Positions 214 through 33,026 of a DNA stretch of 64,000 nucleotides are shown here, piece after piece. The position numbers and the translations under genes are program-made. The stretch's first letter is position 1. Each line of letters begins with the position of its first letter. Under the pieces are notes generated by a model. It saw nothing but the letters and a program-made list of their open reading frames with translations. It searched no databases and was not told the DNA's origin. The DNA is from Candidatus Binatia bacterium (GTDB lineage: Bacteria; Desulfobacterota; Binatia; UBA9968; JAJDTQ01), in assembly GCA_963666515.2 (NCBI GenBank), contig OY762897.2, forward strand, positions 2,272,001 through 2,336,000, read 5' to 3'.

Positions 214-679
214 GGCTCCGCTCCAGGTCGAGCAGGTACTGCTTCACGTCCAGCCCTCCGCCGTACCCGGTCAACTTCCCGTTTCCGCCGATGACCCGGT
301 GACAGGGAACCACGATGGCGATGGGATTGCGCCCGTTGGCCGCTCCCACCGCGCGCACTGCGGCCGGCTGTCCTATGGCCCGCGCCTGCTCGCCGTAGGA
401 GCGGGTGGCGCCGTAGGGAATGTCCTGAAGCGCCGTCCACGCGCGCAACTGGAACGGCGTGCCGGACGGAGCCAGAGGCAGGTCGAACCCTCTCCGCCGC
501 CCCCGGAAGTATTCATCGAGCTGCCGCCTCGCCTTGGCCACCAACGCCCCACCCTTCCGCCAGCCTTCGACGACCCTGCCTGGATGCCGCCCCTCCCGGA
601 AACCGATCATCCTGACCGCGTTCTCGTCGGCCACGATCAGAAGCTCGCCCACCGGACTCTCCATCCAGTCGTAGTTCAT
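203..679 (-). CDS. ogt: methylated-DNA--protein-cysteine methyltransferase
   Basis: PCHRV active site, GTPFQ and RAVGAANGRNP motifs. Confidence 0.95.
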   Translation of the reverse strand: MNYDWMESPVGELLIVADENAVRMIGFREGRHPGRVVEGWRKGGALVAKARRQLDEYFRGRRRGFDLPLAPSGTPFQLRAWTALQDIPYGATRSYGEQARAIGQPAAVRAVGAANGRNPIAIVVPCHRVIGGNGKLTGYGGGLDVKQYLLDLERSHET

Positions 680-16103: not shown

Positions 16104-16260
16104 GTGGAACCCGCTTCCATGTTGATATCCTGCCTTGGTATCCTGTCCCGCCGCCGCGGGGATGAGCCATCATACAATAGCGGCGGACAGAATTCACCTT
16201 CCCTTGACAGGCCGTAGCCGTCGTTCCAGACATAGCTGAACCCGGTTGGAATCCTGTCAC

Positions 16261-17244
16261 ATGATCGAGAAGCCGCCATACGCGATCACGCCGGATATCC
16301 TTTTCCGCGTTGAAGAAATCGGCGAGATGATCGGCCGCGCGGAAGCCGCCGGCATCTCGCAGGATCTGCGCCTGCGGCGAATCAACCGGATCCGCACGAT
16401 TCACGGCTCGCTGGCCATTGAAGGCAACACCTTGAGCGAAGAAGAGGTTGCCACGATTCTCGACGGCAAACCGGTCGCCGCTCCGCCAAGGGACCTTGCG
16501 GAGGTCCGCAACGCCATCCGGGCCTACGACCAGTACCAGCAGTGGGACCCCGCCGACCAGGGCGACCTGCTGCGCGCTCACGAAATTCTCATGGCCGGGC
16601 TGCTGGATGCCCCGGGGCGCTATCGTCAAGGTCAGGTGGCCGTGATGGGCGAGGACGAGGTTCACCACATCGGTCCGCCTGCAGCACGCGTGCCGGAACT
16701 CATGACCAACTTGTTGACGTGGCTCCACAGCACCGACGAACATCCGCTGATTGCCAGCTCGGTCTTTCATTACGAGTTCGAGTTCATCCACCCCTTCGAG
16801 GACGGCAACGGACGGATGGGGCGGCTCTGGCAGACCCTGATCCTGACCCGCTGGAAAACCCTGTTCGCCTGCATTCCCGTGGAGAGTCTTGTCCATGCCC
16901 GCCAAGCCGACTACTACGAAGCCATCAGGCAGAGTTCGGCAGACGGCGAGAGCACATCGTTCATTTCGTTCATGCTGGCAATCATTGTCGAGGCGCTTCG
17001 GATTCCGACAGGGAGCGACCAAGTAGCCGATCAGGTAAGCGACCAAGTAGCAAGGCTGCTCGCGGCTCTGGCCAAAGGCCCCAGGACCGCTGCACAACTA
17101 ATGGCGGACATGGGCTTGTCGCATCGCCCCACGTTCCGCAAGAACTACCTTCGTCCGGCGATCTCCGCAGGGCTGGTGGAGATGACACGGCCCGAATCGC
17201 CCACGGCAAGAAACCAGCAGTACCGGCTTACCGGTGTATCTTGA
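16261..17244 (+). CDS. Fic family AMPylase with N-terminal autoinhibitory motif and C-terminal wHTH
   Basis: HPFEDGNGRMGR Fic motif; SLAIEGN inhibitory motif; SDQV repeat linker. Confidence 0.92.
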   Translation: MIEKPPYAITPDILFRVEEIGEMIGRAEAAGISQDLRLRRINRIRTIHGSLAIEGNTLSEEEVATILDGKPVAAPPRDLAEVRNAIRAYDQYQQWDPADQGDLLRAHEILMAGLLDAPGRYRQGQVAVMGEDEVHHIGPPAARVPELMTNLLTWLHSTDEHPLIASSVFHYEFEFIHPFEDGNGRMGRLWQTLILTRWKTLFACIPVESLVHARQADYYEAIRQSSADGESTSFISFMLAIIVEALRIPTGSDQVADQVSDQVARLLAALAKGPRTAAQLMADMGLSHRPTFRKNYLRPAISAGLVEMTRPESPTARNQQYRLTGVS

Positions 17245-17285
17245 CGAGAGACGGCAGCCCTGATAGAACTTAGCTCAACTTAGCT
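17241..17285 (+). promoter_or_regulatory. promoter/operator of phd-vapC module
   Basis: TTGACG-17 bp-TAGAAC overlapped by direct repeat AACTTAGCT x2 (17267-17275, 17277-17285). Confidence 0.55.
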
Positions 17286-17299
17286 AGAAGGGGCGTAAA

Positions 17300-17554
17300 A
17301 TGAAGCAGGTAAACATGCACGAGGCGAAATCCCAGCTTTCCAGGCTGGGCAAGTTGGCCTGGGAGGGCGAGGAGATCGTGATCGCCAAGGCCGGCGAACC
17401 ATATCTGCTGCTGAAGCCGTACAAACGACCCGTGGAGGAACGAAAGCCTGGTGGGCTGGAAGGGCAGATATGGATGGCCCCGGACTTTGACGAGCCCGAC
17501 GAAGAACTCATGGACCTGATCGAGAACTCGAAGATCTTCCCGGATGAGGACTGA
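17300..17554 (+). CDS. Phd/YefM family antitoxin
   Basis: VNMHEAKSQLSRL...GEEIVIAKAGEP pattern; acidic C-terminus; upstream of PIN toxin. Confidence 0.9.
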   Translation: MKQVNMHEAKSQLSRLGKLAWEGEEIVIAKAGEPYLLLKPYKRPVEERKPGGLEGQIWMAPDFDEPDEELMDLIENSKIFPDED

Positions 17555-17558
17555 CGTC

Positions 17559-17936
17559 GTGCGTCTGTTGCTGGACACCCACGCATTCGTATGGTGGATC
17601 ACCGACTTCGCGCTGCTGACCGAGACAGCCCGTTCGGCAATCGCCGACCCCGGCAACGATGTCTTCGTCAGCGCCATTACCGGTTGGGAGGTCGCCGTCA
17701 AGCGGGCCAAGGGGACCATGACCGCGCCCGACAATCTGTCGGCGATGGTCGAAGAAAAGTGCTTCATCCACCTGCCGTTGACCTTCCATCATGCCGAACA
17801 GGCGGGCAAACTGCCGATGCATCACCGTGACCCGTTCGACCGTTTTCTGATCGCCCAGGCCCAAGCCGAGGGATTGATACTCGTCACCCGCGATCAACAA
17901 ATCCCTCGATACGACGTAGCCACCATGGCGGCTTGA
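17559..17936 (+). CDS. vapC: VapC/PIN domain toxin
   Basis: LLLDTHAFVW, SAITGWE, HRDPFDRFLIAQA, LVTRD; start 17544 or 17559. Confidence 0.9.
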   Translation: MRLLLDTHAFVWWITDFALLTETARSAIADPGNDVFVSAITGWEVAVKRAKGTMTAPDNLSAMVEEKCFIHLPLTFHHAEQAGKLPMHHRDPFDRFLIAQAQAEGLILVTRDQQIPRYDVATMAA

Positions 17937-20873: not shown

Positions 20874-21743
20874 TCATTTCGGCATCGGCCCCACCAGCAG
20901 CGCGGGGTCGAGGCGGCGGCCGAACAGGTTGATGCGCCAGTCGAGGTGGGGGCCGGTGGAGCGGCCGGTGGAGCCGACCTCGGCGATGGGCTGTCCCTGC
21001 TTCACCCGCTGGCCCTTCTTTACCAGGATGCGCGACAGGTGGAGGAACGCGGACGAGAGGCCGTGGCCGTGGTCGACGATCATGGTGCCGCCGGAAAAGT
21101 ACATGTCCCGGTGCACCAAGGTGACCACGCCGGCGGCGGGCGCCGCCACCCGGGTGCCCTTGGGCGCGGCGATGTCGATGCCGTAGTGGGGACGGCGCGG
21201 CTCGCCGTTCAGGATGCGCTGGGAGCCGTAGACGCCGCTGATGCGGCCCTTTACGGGCCAGCGGAAGCCTCCGAGGAAGTCGGTGCGCGGGTCATCGACC
21301 TTGCGCGCGCGCTTCACCAGGGCGACCTCCCGGCGGATGCGCTTGAGATCCTCCTTGCTGGGCGTCACCTTGCGCGGCGGCAGGCCGTCGATGCGCTGAA
21401 CGTTGTACTTGCGGGGCTTGACCACCAGCCCGTACCGCTGGCGCCGTCCGTCCGGGAAGACCACCGACAGCACGGCCCGCGGCGGGGCGTCGCGCCCGAA
21501 GCCGACGAGGAACCAGCCGTCACGGGAGACCCGCACCCGCTCGCCCTCGAACTCCACGACGGAACCCGGCGCCACGCGCCCGCGCAGCAGACCGCCCTGG
21601 ATCCGCGCGCCGTCCAGTTGAACCGCAGCCTCAGCGGCCCGCGACGCATCCGCGGGTAGCAGCACGAACAACGCCGCCAGACAAAGCGCCGTCAACGTCC
21701 ACCGGGACCGCAAACCAGGTACGTTCGTAACAGGTACGTTCAC
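20874..21743 (-). CDS. M23 family metallopeptidase
   Basis: HYGID and STGPHLDW Zn motifs; signal-like hydrophobic segment; start uncertain (21713-21806). Confidence 0.88.
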   Translation of the reverse strand: MNVPVTNVPGLRSRWTLTALCLAALFVLLPADASRAAEAAVQLDGARIQGGLLRGRVAPGSVVEFEGERVRVSRDGWFLVGFGRDAPPRAVLSVVFPDGRRQRYGLVVKPRKYNVQRIDGLPPRKVTPSKEDLKRIRREVALVKRARKVDDPRTDFLGGFRWPVKGRISGVYGSQRILNGEPRRPHYGIDIAAPKGTRVAAPAAGVVTLVHRDMYFSGGTMIVDHGHGLSSAFLHLSRILVKKGQRVKQGQPIAEVGSTGRSTGPHLDWRINLFGRRLDPALLVGPMPK

Positions 21744-21947
21744 GGGATCAACCAAGACTGACGCGGAGCAACGTATCCTTCCTGTTGTGTCGCCAAGCGT
21801 CTGCATCTACAACATATGGTGTATGCGGGCTCCGGTGTCAACCGACCGGCCGGCTGCGGTCTTGACTTGGCGCTGCTTCGGTGGTCCGATGGAATCGGAA
21901 CAGGCTGGCGGTCCCTGCGCGGTCGGACGGAAAGGGAAAGGCGCCCG

Positions 21948-22436
21948 ATGGCACAGTGCGGTGATGGTTCCGGAGACGGCGGCACGACGCGGCGCGGCAC
22001 TCTCGCGCTGATCCTCATGGGCGCGGGGCTCGTCTTGAGCTACGGCCTGCTGGCCGCCCAGGGCTTCCTGTTTCTCCTGCCCCGGCGCCTCCGGCCCGAG
22101 GTCCGCTGGCTGTTCGCCGGACGGCTGGACCACTACCGGGAAGGCGCCGTCCGCAAGTTCACCGGCCTCGACGGCACGGAAATCCTCATCAAGCGCAGTC
22201 CGGGCGGCATCGAGGCCTTCAGTTCGGTGTGCCCCCATCTCGGGTGTCGCGTCCACTGGGTGCCGTCCCGGAAAGAGTTCTTCTGTCCCTGCCACAACGC
22301 GGTGTTCGACGGCGACGGCGTGGCCGTCTCCGGTCCGCCCGCGGACGCGGGACAGCGCCTGGCGCGGGTTCCGCTGAGGGTCGACGACGCCAGCAACGTC
22401 GTCTACGTCGGCGTCAGGGACACGGGCAAGGGTTGA
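21948..22436 (+). CDS. Rieske [2Fe-2S] subunit of quinol:cytochrome c reductase
   Basis: CPHLGC and CPCH boxes; twin-Arg-like TTRRGTL plus TM helix. Confidence 0.92.
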   Translation: MAQCGDGSGDGGTTRRGTLALILMGAGLVLSYGLLAAQGFLFLLPRRLRPEVRWLFAGRLDHYREGAVRKFTGLDGTEILIKRSPGGIEAFSSVCPHLGCRVHWVPSRKEFFCPCHNAVFDGDGVAVSGPPADAGQRLARVPLRVDDASNVVYVGVRDTGKG

Positions 22437-22443
22437 CGAAGCC

Positions 22444-23502
22444 ATGAGCAAGCCTCCCGGAGCCGGCCGCCTGCAAGCCATGTTCCCGTTCGACTGGGAG
22501 CTGCTGAGGCACGCCGGCGCCGAGCCCATCCCCAACCACCTGAAGAAGTGGTGGTTCTGCCTGGGCGGCACCGTCCTCTACCTCTTCATCGTCCAGGTGG
22601 TCACGGGCATCGCCCTGACCTTCTACTACGTGCCCTCCGCGGAGGAAGCCTACGCCAGCGTGGCCGCCATCACCCGCGAGGTCCGCTTCGGCTGGTTCAT
22701 CCGCTCGCTGCACAAGTGGGCCGCCAACCTCATGATCATCGCCGTGATGCTCCACATGCTGCGGGTGTTCGTCACCGGCGCCTACCGCCACCCGCGGCAG
22801 CTCAACTGGTGCGTGGGCTTCCTGCTGTTGCTGGTGACCCTGGGCTTCGGCTTCACGGGCTACTCGCTCGTCTTCGAGCAACTGAGCTTCTGGGGCGCCA
22901 CCGTGGCCACCAACCTGGCCGAGGCGGTGCCGCTGGCCGGGCCGTGGATGGCGCACTTCCTTCGCGGCGGCGCCGAGGTCGGCGGCGCCACGCTGACCCG
23001 CTTCTACATCCTCCACATCGGCGTGCTGCCGACGGTGGCGTTCGCGCTGCTGGCGCTGCACATCCTGCTGATCCGGCTGCAGGGCGTCACGGAACTGGAG
23101 CCGCCGGACGAAGAAGACACGGCCGGGAAACGCCACTTCCCCTTCTGGCCGGACCACGCCACCACCGAGATCCTGATCGGCGTGCTGCTGATGTATCTCC
23201 TGACCATCCTGGCCCTGGTCTTCCCCGCGGGGCTCGGGCCGGCCGCCGATCCCACGCAGACCCCCGATCACATCAAGCCCGAGTGGTTCTTCTATTTCAG
23301 CTTTCGCCTGCTCAAGCTGACGTCGCTGCGCGTGAGCGTGGCGCTGACCGTGGCCATGGGCGCCATCGCCTTCTTCTGGCCCTTCATCGAGGAATGGTGC
23401 CGGCGCCGCTGGCGGGTGCCCGACGGCGTCCCGGTGACCCTGGGCACCCTGGCCTTTCTGGTCTTTCTCGTGCTGACCGTGTGGGAATCCTTTGCCGACT
23501 GA
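22444..23502 (+). CDS. cytochrome b6-type subunit fused with subunit IV
   Basis: WFCLGG, four heme His (RSLHKW..MLHM; ILHI..ALHI), GFTGYSL, HIKPEWF Qo motif. Confidence 0.92.
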   Translation: MSKPPGAGRLQAMFPFDWELLRHAGAEPIPNHLKKWWFCLGGTVLYLFIVQVVTGIALTFYYVPSAEEAYASVAAITREVRFGWFIRSLHKWAANLMIIAVMLHMLRVFVTGAYRHPRQLNWCVGFLLLLVTLGFGFTGYSLVFEQLSFWGATVATNLAEAVPLAGPWMAHFLRGGAEVGGATLTRFYILHIGVLPTVAFALLALHILLIRLQGVTELEPPDEEDTAGKRHFPFWPDHATTEILIGVLLMYLLTILALVFPAGLGPAADPTQTPDHIKPEWFFYFSFRLLKLTSLRVSVALTVAMGAIAFFWPFIEEWCRRRWRVPDGVPVTLGTLAFLVFLVLTVWESFAD

Positions 23503-23526
23503 CCGTCACGAGTCTGGAGCCATGCC

Positions 23527-25122
23527 ATGAGCCTGACCTTCAAACGCTACGTCATTGCCGGCCTGTCCTTCCTCTTCCTCGGGGCGCTTCTGCTGGTGGC
23601 CTGGCAGGAGTCCCGGCGCCACCGGGTGGATCAGGGCCACGAGCCCGTGGTCACCGCGGCCAACCAGGCGTGCGTGACCTGCCACAAGGTCGATTCACCG
23701 GCCATGGTCATGCAGTGGGAGCAGTCCCGGCACGCCCGCTTCGGCGTGGGCTGCGTCGATTGCCACCGGGCGGTCGAGGGCGACATCGACGGCTGGATGC
23801 ACGAGGGGACGCTGGTCTCGGCGCTGGTGACGCCCCGCGACTGCGCCCGCTGCCACGTGCGGGAAGAGGAGCAGTTCGCGCGCAGCCACCACGCCCGCGC
23901 CGGCGAGATCCTGGCGAGCCTCGACAACGTGCTGGCGGAGAAGGCCGCCGGCATGCCCGGCAACATCGCGGACGCGGTCAACGGCTGCTGGCAGTGCCAC
24001 GGCAGCATCATCAGGTTCAAGCGGGACGCGGACGGCGCGGTGCTGCGCACGGGCAAGGAGAACAAGCCGGTCATCGACCCGGACACCTGGCCCAACAGCG
24101 GCATGGGGCGCCTCAACCCCGACGGCTCCAAGGGGTCGTGCCACGCGTGCCATTCACGCCACTCGTTCCAGGCCAAGCTGGCGCGGGCGCCGGAGAACTG
24201 CGGCAAGTGCCACATGGGACCCGACCATCCGCAGATCGAGATCTACAACGAGTCGAAGCACGGCATCGCCTTCTACGCCAACCGCGCGAACATGGCGCTG
24301 GACAAGGAAGGCGACTGGGTGCTGGGACGGGACTACGCCGCCGCGCCCACCTGCGCCACCTGCCACGTCAGCAGCCACATGACGCCGCAGGGCGTCCGCA
24401 CGGGCAACAAGCACGACGTGGGCGAGCGCATAAGCTGGACGCTGCGGCCGGTGATCAGCACCAAGCTCAACCGGGTCGTCTTCAAGGACGGCTACCAGGA
24501 AGACTACCCGGATACCCGGGCGCTGCCGGAGATCGGCGCCACCGTGGACACCGTCGAGAAGGTCGTGCGCAACGAGAGGCTGGTGAACCGGACGGTGCCG
24601 CGCCAGGTGGCCCGCATCGTGACCTGGGAGCAGCGGCGGGAGAACATGAAGCAGGTCTGCCGCAACTGCCACAACGACACCTACATCGACAACTTCTACC
24701 GCCAGTTCGACCAGCTCGTGGTGCTCTACAACGAGAAGTTCGCCCGCCCGGCGCAGCGGATCATGAACGAACTGAAGGCCGACGGCGTGCTCCGGGCCAA
24801 CGCCCCCTTCGAGCACGACGTGCAGTGGGACTTCTGGGAGCTGTGGCACCACGAGGGCCGCAGGGCGCGCCACGGCGCCAGCATGATGGGGCCGGACTAC
24901 ACCCACTGGCACGGCATGTACGAGGTCTCCAAGCACTTCTACCTGAAGTTCCTGCCCCACGTCATCAAGGCCGCTGCCACCAAGGGGCCGGAGATGAAGG
25001 ACAAGTACACCCGGCGGGTCCAGGAGCTGCTGGCGCGGCCCGAGAACGTTTGGCTCAAGGGCCTCAGCGCCGAGGAGGCGGAGGCGCTGCGCAAGGCGTA
25101 CGAGGAACGTTACGACCAGTGA
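23527..25122 (+). CDS. membrane-anchored octaheme cytochrome c, hydroxylamine oxidoreductase (HAO) family
   Basis: Eight CxxCH (CVTCH, CVDCH, CARCH, CWQCH, CHACH, CGKCH, CATCH, CRNCH); GPDHPQIEIYNESKHG and MMGPDYTHWHG HAO-family motifs; N-terminal TM helix. Confidence 0.9.
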   Translation: MSLTFKRYVIAGLSFLFLGALLLVAWQESRRHRVDQGHEPVVTAANQACVTCHKVDSPAMVMQWEQSRHARFGVGCVDCHRAVEGDIDGWMHEGTLVSALVTPRDCARCHVREEEQFARSHHARAGEILASLDNVLAEKAAGMPGNIADAVNGCWQCHGSIIRFKRDADGAVLRTGKENKPVIDPDTWPNSGMGRLNPDGSKGSCHACHSRHSFQAKLARAPENCGKCHMGPDHPQIEIYNESKHGIAFYANRANMALDKEGDWVLGRDYAAAPTCATCHVSSHMTPQGVRTGNKHDVGERISWTLRPVISTKLNRVVFKDGYQEDYPDTRALPEIGATVDTVEKVVRNERLVNRTVPRQVARIVTWEQRRENMKQVCRNCHNDTYIDNFYRQFDQLVVLYNEKFARPAQRIMNELKADGVLRANAPFEHDVQWDFWELWHHEGRRARHGASMMGPDYTHWHGMYEVSKHFYLKFLPHVIKAAATKGPEMKDKYTRRVQELLARPENVWLKGLSAEEAEALRKAYEERYDQ

Positions 25123-25192
25123 GATCCCTCGCGGCCAACGGAGTACGGGAACCGTTGCGGAGGAATCGGCGTCCGGAGGTTGCCGGCCGGGA

Positions 25193-26503
25193 TCAGGGCT
25201 TCGTGCCCACCGCCGAGTGGAACGGTTGCGAGATGAAGAACTGGTTGCCGGCCGAGGCAATCGCGTCCCGCCACTCCTCGGCCTCCTCCGGCGTCAGCCG
25301 CGAGGCCATGCGTTCCTGCTGCTGTTGCAACCGCTCCCCTGATGCGTAGGTGGCGTACTGCGGCAGCATGACCACGTCCCGGAGTCCGGCCCGCTCCATG
25401 CGCTCGTAGAGGCTCGCGTCCGCGCAACCGCCCCGCACCACGTCGCCGTAGCCGGTCTGGGCCTTGTGCTTGAGGTCGGACCGTAGCGGCAGATTGACCC
25501 ACCACGGCATGTCCAGGGAACGGACGATGGCCGCCACCTTGCCGCCGGGCCGGGTGACCCGAACCAACTGGGCCAGCATGGCGTCGGCGTCGCCTTCCTC
25601 CATGACCGTGAACGCCAGGGCTGCGTCGAACCGGCCGTCGGCGAACGGCAGTTCCTCGCCGTTGGCGCTCCGCCACTCGATGACGCCGTCGAGCCCTTCG
25701 CTCACCGCCAGCTTCCCCGCCTCGCGAAGCAGATAGTTGTTGATGTCCGCGCCCACGATGGGGTTGCGCTTATCGGTGTAGCGGGCCAGCCAACGCGCCA
25801 CCGTGCCGGCGCCGCAACCCACCTCCAGCACCGTCTGACCGGGTTCGAGCCCGACCTCGTCCACCACGCTCCGCACCACCCGCAGGTATCCGGGGCCGCG
25901 GGTCTCCAGGAAAGCCACCATGCCCAGGTAACGGCCGCCCAGGGTCACGGTCGTGTAACGCTCGGCGAGGGCGGGCAGCAGCGGATCCCACTGCGACGCC
26001 GCCAAGCCTAGCGGAAAGAGCAGCAGCGGCGGCCCCGATCCCCGGACCGTGTAGGAGATGCCGGCCTCCTCACCCTCCCCTTCCGGGATCTGAACCGACG
26101 GCAGCGGACTCTCCCTGTCCCGAACCGCGAGAAACTCCAGCATGGCCGACCCGACCTCGCCGGTGCGGTCCGCCATGACGTCCGCCCACATGGGGCTGAA
26201 GTAGTCGCGCAGCATGGTCAACGTGGTCCCCGGCAACCCGTCCACCGCACGCATGAGATCGCCCACCACGTTCCCTCCATCGCCCGATACGATCAGCAGC
26301 CGCGACGCATGGGGACGCAGCACCTCGGTCTTCATGCCCCGCGGACAGATGAGGGTGAGCGACGCCACCGCCGCCGGGTGCTGCTCCAGCAACCCGCTCC
26401 AGTCGCCGGGCAGGTAGGCCGCCACATGGGCCTTTTCGATGCCCAGGCGCCGCAGCAACTCGACGACACGGTCCTCCACCGAACGATTTTCCTGTGTGAC
26501 CAC
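25193..26503 (-). CDS. class I SAM methyltransferase with N-terminal alpha/beta-hydrolase-like region
   Basis: VLEVGCGAG motif I, LPFADGRFD, RVTRPGG; hydrolase-like GSGPPLLLF segment; GGAGG RBS before GTG. Confidence 0.82.
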   Translation of the reverse strand: MVTQENRSVEDRVVELLRRLGIEKAHVAAYLPGDWSGLLEQHPAAVASLTLICPRGMKTEVLRPHASRLLIVSGDGGNVVGDLMRAVDGLPGTTLTMLRDYFSPMWADVMADRTGEVGSAMLEFLAVRDRESPLPSVQIPEGEGEEAGISYTVRGSGPPLLLFPLGLAASQWDPLLPALAERYTTVTLGGRYLGMVAFLETRGPGYLRVVRSVVDEVGLEPGQTVLEVGCGAGTVARWLARYTDKRNPIVGADINNYLLREAGKLAVSEGLDGVIEWRSANGEELPFADGRFDAALAFTVMEEGDADAMLAQLVRVTRPGGKVAAIVRSLDMPWWVNLPLRSDLKHKAQTGYGDVVRGGCADASLYERMERAGLRDVVMLPQYATYASGERLQQQQERMASRLTPEEAEEWRDAIASAGNQFFISQPFHSAVGTKP

Positions 26504-26715: not shown

Positions 26716-26771
26716 GGTGCAGGCTATGGCAGCCCGGCCCGGCGTGACGGGTGCGGGCGTTGAGCCTCGCC

Positions 26772-26800
26772 TTGACCCCTCTCCGCATTCACGCCACTAT
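26772..26800 (+). promoter_or_regulatory. putative sigma-70 promoter
   Basis: TTGACC-17 bp-CACTAT upstream of carboxyltransferase copy 1. Confidence 0.45.
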
Positions 26801-26836
26801 GAGCAGTCTGCAACAGCACATCTTTCAGGAGACCAC

Positions 26837-28327
26837 ATGAGCGACATTCACTTCATCGACACGACCCTGCGCGACGGCAACCAGAGCCTGTGGGCGCTCA
26901 ACATGAAGACCGCGGCCATGGTGGAGGCCGCGGAGCAGATGGACCAGGCGGGCTTCGAGTCCATGGAGTTCTTCGTCACCAACATGTTCAAGAAGTACGT
27001 GCGCGAGCACAAGGAGGACCCGTGGGACTGGCTGCGGGAAGGCACCAAGCGGCTGCGCAAGACCGAGCTGCGGCTCCACGGCGGGCTCAAGGGCGGGCTC
27101 GAGAAGAAGCCGGCGTCCATCCTCAGACTCATCATCCAGAAGGTGGTGGACAGCGGCATCACGCTGACGCGCACGTCCAATAGCTGGAACGACTACGAGG
27201 TCTTCGGCGAGGAAGTGAAGGGGCTGCGCGAGCTGGGCATGGAAACCGTGGTGAACCTCATCTACTCGGTGTCGCCCCGGCACACCGACGAGTACTACGC
27301 GCAGAAGGCCCGGGAAGCCGCGGCCATCAAGCCCTACCGCATCTGCTTCAAGGACGTGGGCGGGTTGCTCACGCCGGAGCGCACCCGCTCGCTGGTCCCC
27401 TTGGTGTTGGAGAACATCGGCGACACCCCGGTGGAGTTCCACGCCCACTGCAACAACGGCTTGGCGCCGCTCAACTACCTGGAAGCCATCGAGCTGGGCA
27501 TGACCACCATCCACACCAGCGTGCCGCCGCTGGCCAACGCCTCGGCCCAGCCCTCCATCTTCAACATGGTGCGGAACATCCGCGCCGTGGGGCACACGCC
27601 GCTGGTGGACGAAGAGGTGCTGCGGCCGGTGGAGCAGCACTTCACCTACGTGGCCAGGCGCGACGGCCTCCCCATCGGCAAGCCCGTGGAGTACAACCAC
27701 GGCCAGTACCTGCACCAGGTGCCCGGCGGCATGATCTCCAACTTCGTGCACCAGCTCAAGCTCGTGGGCATGGAGGACAAGCTGCCGGCGGCGCTGGAGG
27801 AGGCCGCGCGGGTGCGCGCCGAGTGGGGCTATCCCATCATGGTGACGCCATTGTCGCAGTTCGTGGGCACCCAGGCGGCGTTCAACGTCATCCTGGGCGA
27901 GCGCTACAAGGAGGTGGCAGACCAGTCCATCCAGTACGCCCTGGGCATCTGGGGCCGGGAAGGCGCCGAGCTCATGGACCCCGACGTCAAGGACAGAATC
28001 CTGAGCCGCCCCCGGGCCAAGGCCTGGACCGAATGGGAGCAGCCGGAGCCGTCGCTGGCGGAGTTGCGGGGACAGGTGGGTGGACCCTCGATTTCCGACG
28101 AGGAGCTGGTGCTGCGGGTCTACGCCGGCGTGGACGAGGTCAGGACCATGATGGAGTCCGGCCGCCCGCGCGAGTACCTGAGCGCCCGCCAGCCGCTGGT
28201 GCGGCTCATCAACGAGCTGACCAAGCAGAAGGAGTACACCCAGGTGTACATCCGCAAGCCGGGCTTCTCCCTCACCCTGGGGCGGAACGCCGACGGAGAC
28301 GCGACCGAAGGTACTGCCGCCGCGTAG
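26837..28327 (+). CDS. pyruvate carboxylase subunit B/OadA-like carboxyltransferase, copy 1 (no biotinyl domain)
   Basis: DTTLRDGNQSL, FKDVGG, EFHAHCNNG, HQVPGGM, GYPIMVTPLSQ; no EAMKM biotin motif. Confidence 0.85.
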   Translation: MSDIHFIDTTLRDGNQSLWALNMKTAAMVEAAEQMDQAGFESMEFFVTNMFKKYVREHKEDPWDWLREGTKRLRKTELRLHGGLKGGLEKKPASILRLIIQKVVDSGITLTRTSNSWNDYEVFGEEVKGLRELGMETVVNLIYSVSPRHTDEYYAQKAREAAAIKPYRICFKDVGGLLTPERTRSLVPLVLENIGDTPVEFHAHCNNGLAPLNYLEAIELGMTTIHTSVPPLANASAQPSIFNMVRNIRAVGHTPLVDEEVLRPVEQHFTYVARRDGLPIGKPVEYNHGQYLHQVPGGMISNFVHQLKLVGMEDKLPAALEEAARVRAEWGYPIMVTPLSQFVGTQAAFNVILGERYKEVADQSIQYALGIWGREGAELMDPDVKDRILSRPRAKAWTEWEQPEPSLAELRGQVGGPSISDEELVLRVYAGVDEVRTMMESGRPREYLSARQPLVRLINELTKQKEYTQVYIRKPGFSLTLGRNADGDATEGTAAA

Positions 28328-28616: not shown

Positions 28617-28940
28617 GTGGGATGGCAGGTCGAAACCGTTTCCAGTGTCGATGCCGAAATCGCGGCCCTGCCGGTGAAGTTGCGTGCCCGGCTGGTGCGG
28701 CTGCTGGAGACAGTGGAGAACGTCGGTCTGGAGGCATTGCGGGAACCGCACGTCAAGCATCTCGAAGGCAAGCTCTGGGAACTACGGGTCAGGGCTGAAG
28801 GGGGGACCGCCAGGGGGATCTATGTGACAGCGGCGCAACGACGGGTGGTGGTCCTGCATGTGTTCGTAAAGAAGTCGCGGAGGACACCGCTTCGGGCTCT
28901 CGCGACAGCCAGGGAACGTATGAAGCAGGTGAAGCTATGA
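28617..28940 (+). CDS. RelE/ParE (Gp49/HigB-like) toxin
   Basis: EPHVKHLEGKLWELRV, VVLHVFVKKSRRTP motifs; toxin-first arrangement. Confidence 0.88.
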   Translation: MGWQVETVSSVDAEIAALPVKLRARLVRLLETVENVGLEALREPHVKHLEGKLWELRVRAEGGTARGIYVTAAQRRVVVLHVFVKKSRRTPLRALATARERMKQVKL

Positions 28941-29221
28941 CCAGACTGAAGGAACTGAAGAAGCGTCTTATGGAAGACCCGGAATTCCGGGAGGAGTACG
29001 CGCGGATTGATGACGAGTACACGCTGATCGAGGCGCTGGTTCGTGCCCGCACGGCGGCGAAGCTGACGCAGGCGGAACTGGCCCGGCGCCTCGGCACGAC
29101 GCAGTCGGCCATCGCGCGGCTGGAGGGCGGCGGAGTGTCGCCGTCGTTTACCACCTTGCGCCGCTACGCTGAAGCGACCGGCACGCGGCTGACCGTTGAG
29201 TTGGTACAAGCCAACCGCTGA
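28937..29221 (+). CDS. XRE-family HTH antitoxin (HigA-like)
   Basis: LTQAELARRLGTTQSAIARLEGG HTH; ATGA overlap with the toxin. Confidence 0.88.
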   Translation: MTRLKELKKRLMEDPEFREEYARIDDEYTLIEALVRARTAAKLTQAELARRLGTTQSAIARLEGGGVSPSFTTLRRYAEATGTRLTVELVQANR

Positions 29222-29782: not shown

Positions 29783-29986
29783 TGATTGGCGGTTGCCCGC
29801 GATGAAAGGCGGGGGTGATCGGCGCCCGCCGCGTGTGCTAAGTTCGAGAATTCCGTTTGCAGGGCATTGGCAACAGCCGCGAATCAGAATCGCGCCCCAC
29901 AGGGCAGGACGGATGCGGGTGGACGCTCGGAGGCGCCACCGCCGCATCACGGGCGATTGCATGGCAACGACCACCGAGGAACACGC

Positions 29987-31477
29987 ATGAGCGACGTCAC
30001 ATTCGTGGACACCACGCTGCGGGACGGCAACCAGAGCCTGTGGGCCTTCAACATGAAGACCGCGGCCATGCTGGAAAGCATCGAGCGCATGGACCGGGCG
30101 GGCTTCGAGTCCATGGAGTTCTTCACCGCCACGATGTTCAAGAAGTACGTGCGCGAGCACAAGGAGAACCCGTGGCACTGGCTGCGGGAGGGCGCACGGC
30201 GCGCGCGCAACACCCCGTTACGGCTCCACGGCGGCATCAAGGGCGGACTGGAGAAGAAACCCACGTCGGTGGCGCGGCTGGTGGTCCAGCACGTCATCGA
30301 CAGCGGCATCACCCTGACCCGCACCTCCAACCCCTGGAACGACTACTCCGTATTCAAGGAGGACGTGGAGGCGCTGCGCGAGGTGGGCATGAACTGCGTG
30401 GTGAACCTGATCTACTCGGTGTCGCCGCGGCACACCGACGAGTACTACGCGCAGAAGGCCCGGGAAGCCGCCGCGCTGAAGCCCTGGCGCATCTGCTTCA
30501 AGGACGTGGGCGGCCTGCTCACCCCCGAGCGCACCCGGACACTGGTACCCCTCGTGCTGGACAACATCGGCGACGTGCCGGTGGAGTTCCACGCCCACTG
30601 CAACAACGGGCTGGCGCCGATCAACTACCTGGAAGCCATCGAGCTGGGCATGACCACCATCCACACCAGCGTGCCGCCCCTGGCCAACGGCTCGGCCCAG
30701 CCGTCGATCTTCAACATGCTCCGGAACGTACGCGCCATGGGCCATACCGCATCGGTGGACGAGGAAGTGCTGAAGCCGGTGCAGGAGCACTTCACCTTCG
30801 TCGCCAAGCGCGACGGCCTGCCCATGGGCGCGCCCGCGGCCTTCGACCAGTCCGTCTATGCCCACCAGGTGCCCGGCGGCATGATCGCCAACTTCCGCCA
30901 TCAACTGGGGTTGGTAGGCATGCTGGACAAGCTGCCGGCGGCGCTGGAGGAGGCCGCGCGGGTGCGCGCGGAGTGGGGCTATCCCATCATGGTGACGCCG
31001 CTGTCCCAGTTCGTCGGCACGCAGGCCGCCATCAACATCATCATGGGGGAACGCTACAAGCAGGTCACCGACCAGTCCATCCAGTACGCCCACGGCATCT
31101 GGGGCCGGGAGGGCGCGGAACTGATGGACCCCGACGTGAAGGACCGCATCCTGGGGCGGCCGCGCGCGAAGGACTGGGAAGGCTGGCAGCAGCCGGACCC
31201 GTCGCTCCCCGAGGTGCGGACGCAGCTCGGCAGCTCCTCCATGTCCGACGAGGAGCTGATCCTGCGGGTCTTCGCCGGGGACGAGGCGGTGGAGGAACTG
31301 CAGAACGCCGGCCGGCCCCGCGAGTACCTGAGCGCCAGCCAGCCGCTGGTGCGGCTCGTGAACGAGCTGACCAAGCAGCAGGAGTACACCCAGGTCTACA
31401 TCCGCAAGCCGGGCTTCTCCCTCACCCTGGGACGGAGCGCCGACGGCGAGGCGGCGGAAGACACCGCGGCCCTGTAG
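29987..31477 (+). CDS. PycB/OadA-like carboxyltransferase, copy 2
   Basis: Same motifs as copy 1; GAGGA RBS. Confidence 0.85.
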   Translation: MSDVTFVDTTLRDGNQSLWAFNMKTAAMLESIERMDRAGFESMEFFTATMFKKYVREHKENPWHWLREGARRARNTPLRLHGGIKGGLEKKPTSVARLVVQHVIDSGITLTRTSNPWNDYSVFKEDVEALREVGMNCVVNLIYSVSPRHTDEYYAQKAREAAALKPWRICFKDVGGLLTPERTRTLVPLVLDNIGDVPVEFHAHCNNGLAPINYLEAIELGMTTIHTSVPPLANGSAQPSIFNMLRNVRAMGHTASVDEEVLKPVQEHFTFVAKRDGLPMGAPAAFDQSVYAHQVPGGMIANFRHQLGLVGMLDKLPAALEEAARVRAEWGYPIMVTPLSQFVGTQAAINIIMGERYKQVTDQSIQYAHGIWGREGAELMDPDVKDRILGRPRAKDWEGWQQPDPSLPEVRTQLGSSSMSDEELILRVFAGDEAVEELQNAGRPREYLSASQPLVRLVNELTKQQEYTQVYIRKPGFSLTLGRSADGEAAEDTAAL

Positions 31478-31553: not shown

Positions 31554-33026
31554 ATGAGCGACGTCACATTCGTGGACACCACGCTGCGGGACGGCAACCA
31601 GAGCCTGTGGGCCTACAACATGAGGACCGCGGCCATGCTGGAGGCCATCGAGGGCATGGATCGGGCGGGCTTCGAGTCCATGGAGTTCTTCAGCGCCACC
31701 ATGATCAAGAAGTACGTGCGCGAGCACAAGGAGAACCCGTGGCACTGGATCCGTGAAGGCACCCGGCGCGCCCGCAACACTGGGCTGCGGATGCACGGCA
31801 GCATCCGGGGCGGGCTGGAGAAGAAGCCCACGGCAGTGGCCAAGCTGGTGGTCAGCCACCTGGTGGAGAACGGCATCCGCCTGACGCGCAACTCCAACCC
31901 GTGGAACGACTACTCGGTGTTCAAGCAGGAGGTGGACGACCTGCGCGAACTGGGCATGGATGCCGTGGCGAACATCATCTACTCGGTGTCGCCGCGGCAC
32001 ACGGACGAGTACTACGCGCAGAAAGCCCGGGAAGCCGCAGCCCTGAAGCCCTGGCGCATCTGCTTCAAGGACGTGGGCGGCATGCTCACCCCGGAGCGCA
32101 CCCGTACGCTGGTGCCCATCGTGCTGGAGAACATCGGCGATACCCCGGTGGAGTTCCACGCCCACTGCAACAACGGGCTGGCGCCGCTCAACTACCTGGA
32201 AGCCATCAAGCTCGGCATGACCACCATCCACACCAGCATACCGCCGCTGGCCAACGGCTCGGCCCAGCCCTCGATCTTCAACATGCTCCGGAACGTGCGC
32301 GCCATGGGCCATACGGTCAACGTGGACGAGGAAGCGCTGAAGCCGGTGCGGGAGCATTTCACCTTCGTGGCCAAACGGGACGGCCTGCCGGTGGGGGAGC
32401 CGAGGGCCTTCGACCAGTCCGTCTACAGCCACCAGGTGCCCGGCGGCATGATCTCCAACTTCGTGCACCAGCTCCGCCTCGTGGGCATGGAGGACAAGCT
32501 GCCGGCGGCGCTGGAGGAAGCCGCGCGGGTGCGCGAAGAGTGGGGCTATCCCATCATGGTGACGCCACTGTCCCAGTTCGTGGGCACCCAAGCGGCCATC
32601 AACGTCATCATGGGAGAGCGCTACAAGCAGGTCACCGACCAGTCCATCCAGTACGCCCTGGGCATCTGGGGGCGGCAGGGCGCCGAGTACATGGACCCCG
32701 AGGTGAAGGACCGCATCCTGGCGCGGCCGCGGGCCAAGGCTTGGGAGAACTGGGAACAGCCGGACCCGTCCCTCAAGGAGGTCCGGGCCCGGCTCGGGGC
32801 CTCGCTGTCCGACGAGGAGCTGATCATGCGGGTGTACGCGGGGGACGAGGCGGTGGATGCTCTGCAGAACGCAGGCCGGCCGCGCGAGTACCTGAGCGCC
32901 AGCCAGCCGCTGGTGCGGCTCATCAACGAGCTGACCCGCCAGCAGGAGTACACCCAGGTCTACATCCGCAAGCCCGGCTTCTCACTCACGCTGGGGAAGG
33001 AATCGCCGACGGCCGGCGCTTCCTGA
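31554..33026 (+). CDS. PycB/OadA-like carboxyltransferase, copy 3
   Basis: Same motifs as copies 1 and 2; shares upstream accaccgaggaaca with copy 2. Confidence 0.85.
   Translation: MSDVTFVDTTLRDGNQSLWAYNMRTAAMLEAIEGMDRAGFESMEFFSATMIKKYVREHKENPWHWIREGTRRARNTGLRMHGSIRGGLEKKPTAVAKLVVSHLVENGIRLTRNSNPWNDYSVFKQEVDDLRELGMDAVANIIYSVSPRHTDEYYAQKAREAAALKPWRICFKDVGGMLTPERTRTLVPIVLENIGDTPVEFHAHCNNGLAPLNYLEAIKLGMTTIHTSIPPLANGSAQPSIFNMLRNVRAMGHTVNVDEEALKPVREHFTFVAKRDGLPVGEPRAFDQSVYSHQVPGGMISNFVHQLRLVGMEDKLPAALEEAARVREEWGYPIMVTPLSQFVGTQAAINVIMGERYKQVTDQSIQYALGIWGRQGAEYMDPEVKDRILARPRAKAWENWEQPDPSLKEVRARLGASLSDEELIMRVYAGDEAVDALQNAGRPREYLSASQPLVRLINELTRQQEYTQVYIRKPGFSLTLGKESPTAGAS

Follow-up and report, generated by a model that had tools for sequence, protein, structure and literature searches.

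A candidate quinol-oxidising Rieske/cytochrome b6-type complex with an octaheme cytochrome c of the HAO family in Candidatus Binatia

In this work we analysed a stretch of 64,000 nucleotides (nt) from Candidatus Binatia bacterium (GenBank assembly GCA_963666515.2, contig OY762897.2, positions 2,272,001 to 2,336,000 of the forward strand), referred to hereafter as the window. Three adjacent genes in the window encode a Rieske iron-sulfur protein, a cytochrome b and an octaheme cytochrome c of the hydroxylamine oxidoreductase (HAO) family. We consider it somewhat probable, from their sequences, that these genes specify a dedicated quinol-oxidising Rieske/b6-type complex, in which a catalytic octaheme that lacks the tyrosine (Tyr) cross-link takes the place of cytochrome f or c1 and reduces a nitrogen oxide. 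The arrangement of Rieske protein, cytochrome b and octaheme has already been described in Nitrospira and Caldithrix, and the trio in the window is a further, ordinary member. More tentatively, the octaheme may represent a distinct, structurally unsolved clade of the HAO superfamily that is very widespread and strongly conserved. One of its three wirings, with a low-potential Rieske/b6 complex of its own, might be a three-subunit, electrogenic quinol:nitrite reductase (to ammonium), a third major route of ammonification or assimilation that surveys of nrfA and onr leave out.

From the genes, families, motifs and conserved synteny that were observed, and from the link between membrane anchor and synteny, we infer the substrate, product, quinone type and Q cycle of the following scheme. 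A quinol, probably one of low potential (menaquinol), would be oxidised at the Qo site. The first electron would pass to a Rieske cluster of lowered potential and then along the heme chain of the octaheme to the five-coordinate heme 4, where a periplasmic nitrogen oxide would be reduced. This would most probably be nitrite, converted to ammonium, with hydroxylamine and nitric oxide (NO) as likely side substrates. The second electron would cross the membrane via hemes bL, bH and ci, and the reduction would be electrogenic.

The operon is real, and nearly all of the details given in a first-pass annotation, which had been made from the letters alone, are correct. As that annotation stated and the list of open reading frames (ORFs) bears out, the three genes are co-directional on the forward strand and are separated by gaps of 7 nt (22437-22443) and 24 nt (23503-23526). 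The motifs that it listed (CPCHNAVF, WFCLGG, PEWF, eight CxxCH, a hydrophobic N-terminus and MMGPDYTHWHG) are all present in the translations. The cytochrome b and octaheme genes have a GC content at third codon positions of 0.94-0.96, which, with the thousands of homologues, argues that the genes are real. The Rieske ORF has alternative starts at 21816 and 21948; the latter agrees with the N-termini of homologues and with a stretch resembling a Shine-Dalgarno (SD) sequence (Table 1). A convergent gene begins 70 nt past the octaheme stop. Scans of 21500-25500 returned no sigma-70-like promoter (0.3 matches expected) and four terminator-like matches (1.8 expected), none of them at the 3' end of the operon.

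The Rieske protein has a twin-arginine motif and one transmembrane helix at its N-terminus, and its matches to NCBIfam models (PetC of cytochrome b6f and the small subunit of arsenite oxidase) are weak and below the cut-offs. Its motifs and those of cytochrome b were compared in 24 sequences, the window and 23 of the 25 loci that share its synteny (see below); L003 and L070 and the partial L010, L014 and L068 were left out. Box I is identical in all 24 sequences, and all 24 carry the twin-arginine motif. Box II had been said to lack the serine (Ser) and Tyr of high-potential clusters. Neither residue is present in the CPCHNAVF of the window or in any other of the 24 sequences, which have glycine (Gly) or alanine (Ala) at the Ser position and phenylalanine (Phe) at the Tyr position. 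Mutational data suggest that the Rieske potential falls by roughly 150-200 mV on losing both Ser and Tyr. With both hydrogen-bond donors missing, the potential of the window Rieske cluster should be lowered, and a lowered potential would suit a menaquinol-type donor. That the Ser/Tyr pair of box II raises the Rieske potential is also described in PMC12954380.

The cytochrome b is a single 352-residue protein matched by both PF00033 (197 bits) and PF00032 (31 bits). The NCBIfam models for cytochrome b6, ExtP and subunit IV match it as well, all below their cut-offs. Its b-heme ligands are predicted to be two histidine (His) pairs, His90/His104 (13 intervening residues) and His191/His206 (14 intervening residues). 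This is the b6-type spacing, and all 24 sequences have the same His pattern. The cysteine (Cys) to which heme ci is predicted from sequence to attach is found in 20 of the 24, with Ala in three and one sequence outside the pattern, while the PEW[YF] motif reads PEWY in 18 and PEWF in six. Pfam, NCBIfam and motif conservation thus uphold the description of this subunit as a b6-type cytochrome b with a heme-ci Cys and a fused subunit IV. The fused protein has 2757 relatives at E <= 1e-60. A subunit of the cytochrome f or c1 type is absent from the operon, the third gene of which encodes the HAO-family octaheme, and there is no other c-type gene.

A second Rieske/b6/subunit IV complex, with split genes, is encoded elsewhere in the host genome (3087843-3091421, locus L114); its box II reads CPCHGSGF and its cytochrome b has the heme-ci Cys. 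The window complex is thus additional to this one, and dedicated. According to PMC8262859, Binatota as a rule use alternative complex III for respiration.

Membership of the third protein in the HAO family, as first annotated, is borne out by PF13447 (81 bits against a cut-off of 21.9) and by matches in the PDB. The best of these is 4qo5, the octaheme cytochrome of Ignicoccus hospitalis (IhOCC, 1e-42), followed by 6h5l (HAOr, 3e-20), 4n4j (Kuenenia HOX, 2e-17) and 1fgj (Nitrosomonas HAO, 4e-12). The NCBIfam model for hydrazine dehydrogenase (HDH) matches below its cut-off. The translation contains the eight CxxCH motifs (residues 49, 76, 106, 154, 205, 225, 276 and 378) and the N-terminal anchor that had been read from it, a signal-anchor helix at about residues 8-26. 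An alignment of 20 diverse family members shows no variation in the eight heme motifs, the aspartate-histidine pair Asp233-His234, a tryptophan (Trp461) and several His residues that are candidates for the distal position. The Asp-His pair aligns in HMMER (query 202-282 against 1fgj 236-316) with residues 267/268 of 1fgj, which we take to be the catalytic Asp-His pair of Nitrosomonas HAO. The octaheme and IhOCC share an insertion of about 45 residues between hemes 4 and 5 that HAO lacks.

The residue of 1fgj that forms a cross-link with heme 4 of the adjacent subunit is presumably Tyr467. A search of the PDB with the family profile stopped short of the C-terminal region of 1fgj and did not reach this column, and the best 150 matches in the representative library were all closer to the query than canonical HAO, with no Tyr-bearing reference among them. 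The column was mapped via the HAO paralogues of Brocadia pituitae (15 matches in the genome that contains locus L064, taken as 12 HAO-type ORFs). One of these, L083, aligns with 1fgj over 444 residues and places residue 467 on the Tyr of its NPNGFTY motif. In a MAFFT L-INS-i alignment the column holds Trp in the window (Trp461) and in all seven of the family members included. Among the Brocadia paralogues it holds Tyr in six of the oxidase/HDH type, Trp in three of the HAOr type, leucine in one and Phe in the IhOCC orthologue. The window octaheme is ungapped at this column, and a one-residue shift, with the threonine residues aligned, would bring in His460, which is also not a Tyr. The alignment with Nitrosomonas HAO and anammox paralogues that had been proposed as a check, here run with those of Brocadia, thus finds no Tyr in the window. 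Because Trp, or His if the alignment is shifted, occupies the position of the cross-link Tyr, the octaheme is, as judged from these residues, not a P460-type oxidase. The first-pass annotation had taken MMGPDYTHWHG itself as a sign of the reductive type. The absence of Tyr from the cross-link column agrees with this, but the motif contains a Tyr and the call rests on the alignment. A correspondence between Tyr334 of NeHAO and Arg307 of the window, as a third distal residue, was dropped because the loop alignment is unstable even between NeHAO and a Brocadia homologue.

Of the 8000 candidates scored, at least 7998 are relatives of the octaheme. Identity is 69-95% among the 120 matches listed, the named relatives among which come from several phyla, and the protein is conserved at about 70-90% identity across phyla. 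A scan with one genome per species matched at least 597 stretches; the best 80 loci were kept, 74 of them with at least 1600 bp upstream of the octaheme gene. A survey of the three-gene synteny, which had been suggested at the outset, found the Rieske and cytochrome b genes directly upstream in 25 of the 74 evaluable loci (gap 17-114 bp) and neither gene in the other 49, and the trio is thus not peculiar to the window genome. The 25 loci come from about ten phyla, in records named Binatia, 'Syntrophobacterales', Latescibacterota, Deltaproteobacteria, Gemmatimonas, FCB group, Ignavibacteria/Ignavibacteriota, Planctomycetales, Anaerolineae, Acidobacteriota/Thermoanaerobaculia, Zixibacteria and KSB1. 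In 25 of 25 syntenic loci the N-terminus of the octaheme is a shared hydrophobic anchor with charged residues after it. This anchor is missing in all 49 others, where the octahemes (63-77% identity) have cleavable signal peptides or lipoprotein boxes. At about 49% identity, in a Desulfobulbaceae-/Desulfocapsa-type locus (L074, read from L071-L080), ORFs with four CxxCH, of 267 amino acids (aa) and of 399 aa precede the octaheme. On our reading of these ORFs, which has no family search behind it, they are NrfH/NrfC/NrfD-like and would make a third wiring. An octaheme family that is joined to different quinol-oxidising modules or left soluble therefore fits a periplasmic terminal reductase.

A predicted complex of cytochrome b, the Rieske protein and residues 1-60 of the octaheme scored 0.73, compared to 0.02 for the best of three controls. 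Of 157 solved complexes, 116 attained the mark used for this score, as did two of 215 mismatched pairs. The pLDDT (predicted local distance difference test) of the partner in the prediction is at least 65. The prediction lends weak support to a model in which the octaheme anchor would pack on the Rieske helix and on the first helix of the subunit-IV part.

In nine loci of the Rieske/b type (Table 1) the octaheme gene is directly followed by a conserved ORF for a soluble protein of about 205 aa that belongs to no Pfam family; the loci without Rieske/b all lack it at this place. This ORF may be a fourth, accessory component of the module; a tblastn search of the window's own genome gave no match to it. 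Outer-membrane porin-like genes (PF13372, Alginate_exp) adjoin the trio in three of 13 syntenic loci (L053, L056 and L059). A molybdopterin oxidoreductase is encoded 2.5 kb downstream in L056, and a cytochrome c/EB_dh protein directly downstream in L022.

The closest descriptions in the literature are from Nitrospira, in which an octaheme named 'OCC/ONR' has two upstream genes for a Rieske protein and cytochrome b, a pair that NapC replaces in lineage IV (PMC6311188, PMC6606698, PMC5767232, PMC12342949). This OCC has been proposed to reduce nitrite to ammonia with quinol (PMC6311188, PMC6606698, PMC12342949) and is reported to be expressed, with the Rieske/cytochrome b pair, on nitrite as sole nitrogen source (PMC6606698, PMC6311188); PMC6311188 presents it as without biochemical characterisation. 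The gene order described for N. moscoviensis and N. japonica (Rieske, cytochrome b, periplasmic octaheme) is, as described, that of the window. The Nitrospira cluster lies among nitrogen assimilation genes (amtB, glnA), whereas the window cluster does not. The only lead to orthology with Nitrospira is a protein-atlas cluster that is commonest in Nitrospirota (feature score 0.96). Nitrospira names are absent from the 120 best matches listed for the octaheme and for cytochrome b and from the best 80 loci.

Caldithrix abyssi, as described in PMC5317091, ammonifies nitrate without NrfA, and its Cabys_2558-2556 encode a Rieske protein, a cytochrome b and an 'epsilon-Hao' next to nap. By that description its trio is like that of the window in having a Tyr-less HAO-family octaheme that has been proposed to reduce nitrite to ammonium. 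The Caldithrix trio is embedded in a nap cluster, whereas the window genome has no NapA above the cut-off. Our literature search found no biochemical characterisation of a Rieske/cytochrome b/octaheme complex.

Among proteins of solved structure, IhOCC (4QO5) is the best match, at 6e-60 when the family profile is used, and the heme 4-5 insertion is present in both. Like the window octaheme, IhOCC has no cross-link Tyr and is membrane-associated, and it has been called an octaheme nitrite reductase without P460 heme (PMC9250108). The window protein matches IhOCC with about 150-207 bits in three stretches, compared to 465 bits for the true IhOCC orthologue in Brocadia. A Rieske/cytochrome b partner has not been reported for IhOCC.

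The precedent invoked in the first-pass annotation, an anammox Rieske/cytochrome b complex with an HAO-like subunit, stands as an analogue but not as an orthologue. The R/b-3 complex (Kuste4569-4574) with HAOr (Kustc0458, 6H5L) resembles the window in being a b6-type Rieske/b complex with a Tyr-less octaheme. Its Brocadia counterpart, however, is an operon of six genes, encoding a Rieske protein, an NAD(P) oxidoreductase, cytochrome b6, an unassigned 240-aa membrane ORF (on our reading a separate subunit IV), a multiheme cytochrome c and an HAO, in agreement with Kuste4569-4574 as described (PMC12954380). The HAO of this operon (L086) has a C-terminal anchor, is HAOr-like (589 bits to 6h5l) and belongs to a different clade from the window octaheme, while the Brocadia member of the window family (L093, which is also the gene of L064) is a solitary gene. 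Both Ser and Tyr are present in the Kuste4569 Rieske protein, whose potential is +303 mV (PMC12954380); the window Rieske has neither residue.

These relationships were also seen in a quick maximum-likelihood tree of 70 rows rooted at the midpoint. The window family (SH-aLRT 99) and its Desulfocapsa-type sisters (98) fell among the lineages on the IhOCC side, apart from the clade of HAO, HDH and HAOr, with the window family and IhOCC as separate clades on the same side. Since the window octaheme and Brocadia L086 are in different clades, the association of Rieske/b with the HAO family arose at least twice.

The P460 enzymes (Nitrosomonas europaea HAO, Kuenenia HOX and HDH) share with the window octaheme the order of the eight hemes, the Asp-His pair by heme 6 and the distal-His motifs. 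The window protein differs from them in the missing cross-link Tyr, in extra insertions between hemes 4/5 and 7/8 and in its N-terminal membrane anchor, and it matches them at only 4e-12 to 2e-17. On the side of the quinol-oxidising subunits, cytochrome b6f and the Firmicute-type bc complexes have the same His spacing (13 + 14), heme-ci Cys, PEW[YF], disulfide-forming Rieske boxes and Tat signal. In the window, by contrast, b6 and subunit IV are fused, cytochrome f/c1 is missing, and box II has Ala or Gly and Phe for Ser and Tyr. The overall reaction proposed here, from quinol to a periplasmic multiheme nitrite ammonifier, would be the same as that of NrfAH, but NrfH is unrelated as a quinol dehydrogenase. 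The NrfH route is regarded as electroneutral.

The host genome (4.67 Mb, 98% complete) has one HAO-family gene, consistent with the non-anammox organism that had been supposed, and the trio is an ordinary accessory respiratory or assimilatory module in it. A search of the genome found no PF01077 siroheme nitrite/sulfite reductase, NrfA, NirK, NirS or Hcp. Among its molybdoenzymes the best is a formate dehydrogenase, and none of the rest matches a nitrate reductase model above the cut-off. With nitrate and nitrite reductases not found in the host, nitrite, hydroxylamine or NO would therefore come from outside the cell. A search for ammonia monooxygenase (AMO) was empty, but the control genomes were silent too, so this is uninformative. 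In the phylum sample, three of 201 genomes have a near-full-length strong match to the octaheme, too few for co-occurrence statistics. PF01077 was found in only one of the five other genus genomes tested, irrespective of the octaheme, and its absence from the host and the other four raises the question of how sulfate or nitrite is assimilated in this genus. As habitat leads only, sponge and coral reef metagenome runs hold 0.21-0.46 of the sampled words of the operon, and four runs of one organism hold 0.81-1.00 of them.

Several observations weigh against a nitrogen oxide reductase fed by the Rieske/b complex. In the octaheme, Tyr458 precedes the cross-link column by three (or two) residues, and alignments of loops are liable to shift. 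An AlphaFold2 model of the octaheme from the 20-sequence alignment has a mean pLDDT of 61, with the heme core below 50, and the three runs of the complex prediction share no contacts (agreement at least 0%). IhOCC, the nearest solved relative, has Asp-Val in place of Asp-His, with valine where the window has His234, and its physiological role is given as unknown in the account of PMC4429474. Conserved nitrogen genes flanking the trio were not found in 13 syntenic loci. NapA and NarG were not found above the cut-off in the host genome, which has no evident internal source of nitrite. The trio is patchy, with orthologues (E < 1e-280) in three of seven genomes of the genus and in five of 121 of the class sample. 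Nor does it complement PF01077 within the genus, in which this family is also missing from two of the three octaheme-less genomes tested.

Of the other explanations, the one that survives best, though we regard it as unlikely, is that the octaheme detoxifies or scavenges hydroxylamine and/or NO from neighbouring nitrifiers, converting them to ammonium, and that nitrite is not its physiological substrate. HAO-family reductases do reduce hydroxylamine in vitro, and both the accessory status of the trio within the genus and a host without recognisable nitrate reductases, the other nitrite reductases searched for or Hcp are what this would predict. However, a full Q-cycle complex would be a large investment for detoxification alone. 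The failure to find AMO or pMMO as an internal source of hydroxylamine adds nothing, given the silent controls.

It is rather unlikely that the octaheme is an NO-forming nitrite reductase like HAOr (Kustc0458), which would take one electron per nitrite and release NO or hand it on. HAOr reduces nitrite to NO (PMC9250108, PMC12485887), and the window protein resembles it in having Trp in the cross-link column, where the HAOr-type Brocadia paralogues L084, L086 and L089 have Trp too, and in keeping the Asp-His pair of 6h5l. Against this, the quick tree places the window family on the side of IhOCC, away from the HAO/HDH/HAOr clade, and the window protein matches 6h5l at 3e-20 compared to 1e-42 for IhOCC. 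The host genome also lacks NirK and NirS and has no sign of denitrification, although NO reductase was not searched for.

We think it quite unlikely that the octaheme is an electron-transfer subunit only, a multiheme stand-in for cytochrome c1/f that feeds other periplasmic or extracellular acceptors. Rieske/b complexes with multiheme c subunits are described as common in anaerobes (PMC5317091, citing Dibrova 2013), and the best NCBIfam match of the cytochrome b, below the cut-off, is ExtP of a Geobacter multiheme cluster. An electron carrier would not, however, be expected to keep the Asp-His pair invariant in 20 diverse family members or a sequence that is about 70-90% identical across phyla. 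Moreover, in 49 of 74 loci a close homologue (63-77% identity) is a periplasmic protein or lipoprotein that stands by itself, as would be expected more of an enzyme than of a fixed subunit.

Two further explanations are very improbable. The octaheme is an HAO superfamily member and some databases call its homologues 'hydroxylamine dehydrogenase', but a complex running oxidatively, in which the octaheme oxidises hydroxylamine or another reduced compound and passes electrons to the quinone pool or a c-type acceptor, is opposed by the missing cross-link Tyr, by the lack of hydroxylamine oxidation in the Tyr-less HAOr (PMC9250108), by the reverse electron flow that quinone reduction via Rieske/b would require and by an AMO search that found nothing (control silent). 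A substrate other than a nitrogen compound, such as sulfite, would accord with the absence of PF01077 from the host, with sulfite reduction by a related octaheme enzyme of Thioalkalivibrio (PMC8840924) and with the source of IhOCC, a sulfur reducer without known nitrogen oxide metabolism according to PMC4429474, but assimilatory sulfite is made in the cytoplasm whereas the octaheme is periplasmic, no conserved sulfur genes lie beside the trio, and four other genus members also lack PF01077, with or without the octaheme.

The convergent gene on the reverse strand (25193-26503) encodes a protein of 436 aa; its C-terminal half contains a UbiE/COQ5-type methyltransferase domain, and its N-terminal half has no assignment. 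The gene adjoins the trio also in the closest relative (L002), probably reflecting shared ancestry and not a functional link. Three paralogous carboxyltransferase genes with HMGL-like and PYC_OADA domains are clustered within 6 kb (26717-28327, 29867-31477 and 31554-33026). They are of the oxaloacetate decarboxylase alpha/pyruvate carboxylase B type, the first two near-equal in length and highly similar. Small genes of mobile or toxin-antitoxin-like type flank the region at 16246-17936 and 28617-29221 (Fic, PIN domain; two short ORFs at 28617-29221).

Table 1. Coordinates of the operon, its motifs and the associated ORF. Positions are those of the window unless a locus is named.
Feature	Residues	Position (nt)	Strand	Basis or remark
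SD-like purine-rich stretch		21930..21941	+	sequence reading; precedes Rieske start, inside 141-nt divergent intergenic region 21807-21947
Rieske [2Fe-2S] subunit	162 aa	21948..22436	+	PF00355, 39 bits
Rieske box I, CPHLGC	95-100	22230-22247	+	
Rieske box II, CPCHNAVF	113-120	22284-22307	+	
Cytochrome b, b6-like four-helix part fused to subunit-IV-like three-helix part	352 aa	22444..23502	+	PF00033, PF00032
Cytochrome b Cys39 in WFCLGG	39	22558-22560	+	heme-ci position
Cytochrome b PEWF	279-282	23278-23289	+	
Octaheme cytochrome c, HAO family	531 aa	23527..25122	+	PF13447, 81 bits
Octaheme Asp233-His234 pair	233-234	24223-24228	+	after sixth heme motif
Octaheme MMGPDYTHWHG	453-463		+	
Octaheme Trp461	461	24907-24909	+	in column of HAO cross-link Tyr
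Conserved soluble ORF	~205 aa	L008:6615-7232, L011:6604-7215, L052:4663-5280, L053:6609-7238		also in L009, L010, L014, L039, L061

As a compact set of three genes, the trio lends itself to a first biochemical and structural study of electron transfer from a Rieske protein to a multiheme enzyme. Its paired changes, a Rieske protein without the Ser/Tyr hydrogen-bond donors and an octaheme without the cross-link Tyr, are directly testable. If the trio reduces nitrite to ammonium via a Q cycle, ammonification by this route would conserve more energy than via NrfAH. The genes would then also mark nitrogen-retaining Binatia, Latescibacterota, Ignavibacteria, Gemmatimonadota, Acidobacteriota and Zixibacteria that go uncounted in surveys of nrfA and onr, the only two genes screened for in PMC10716430.

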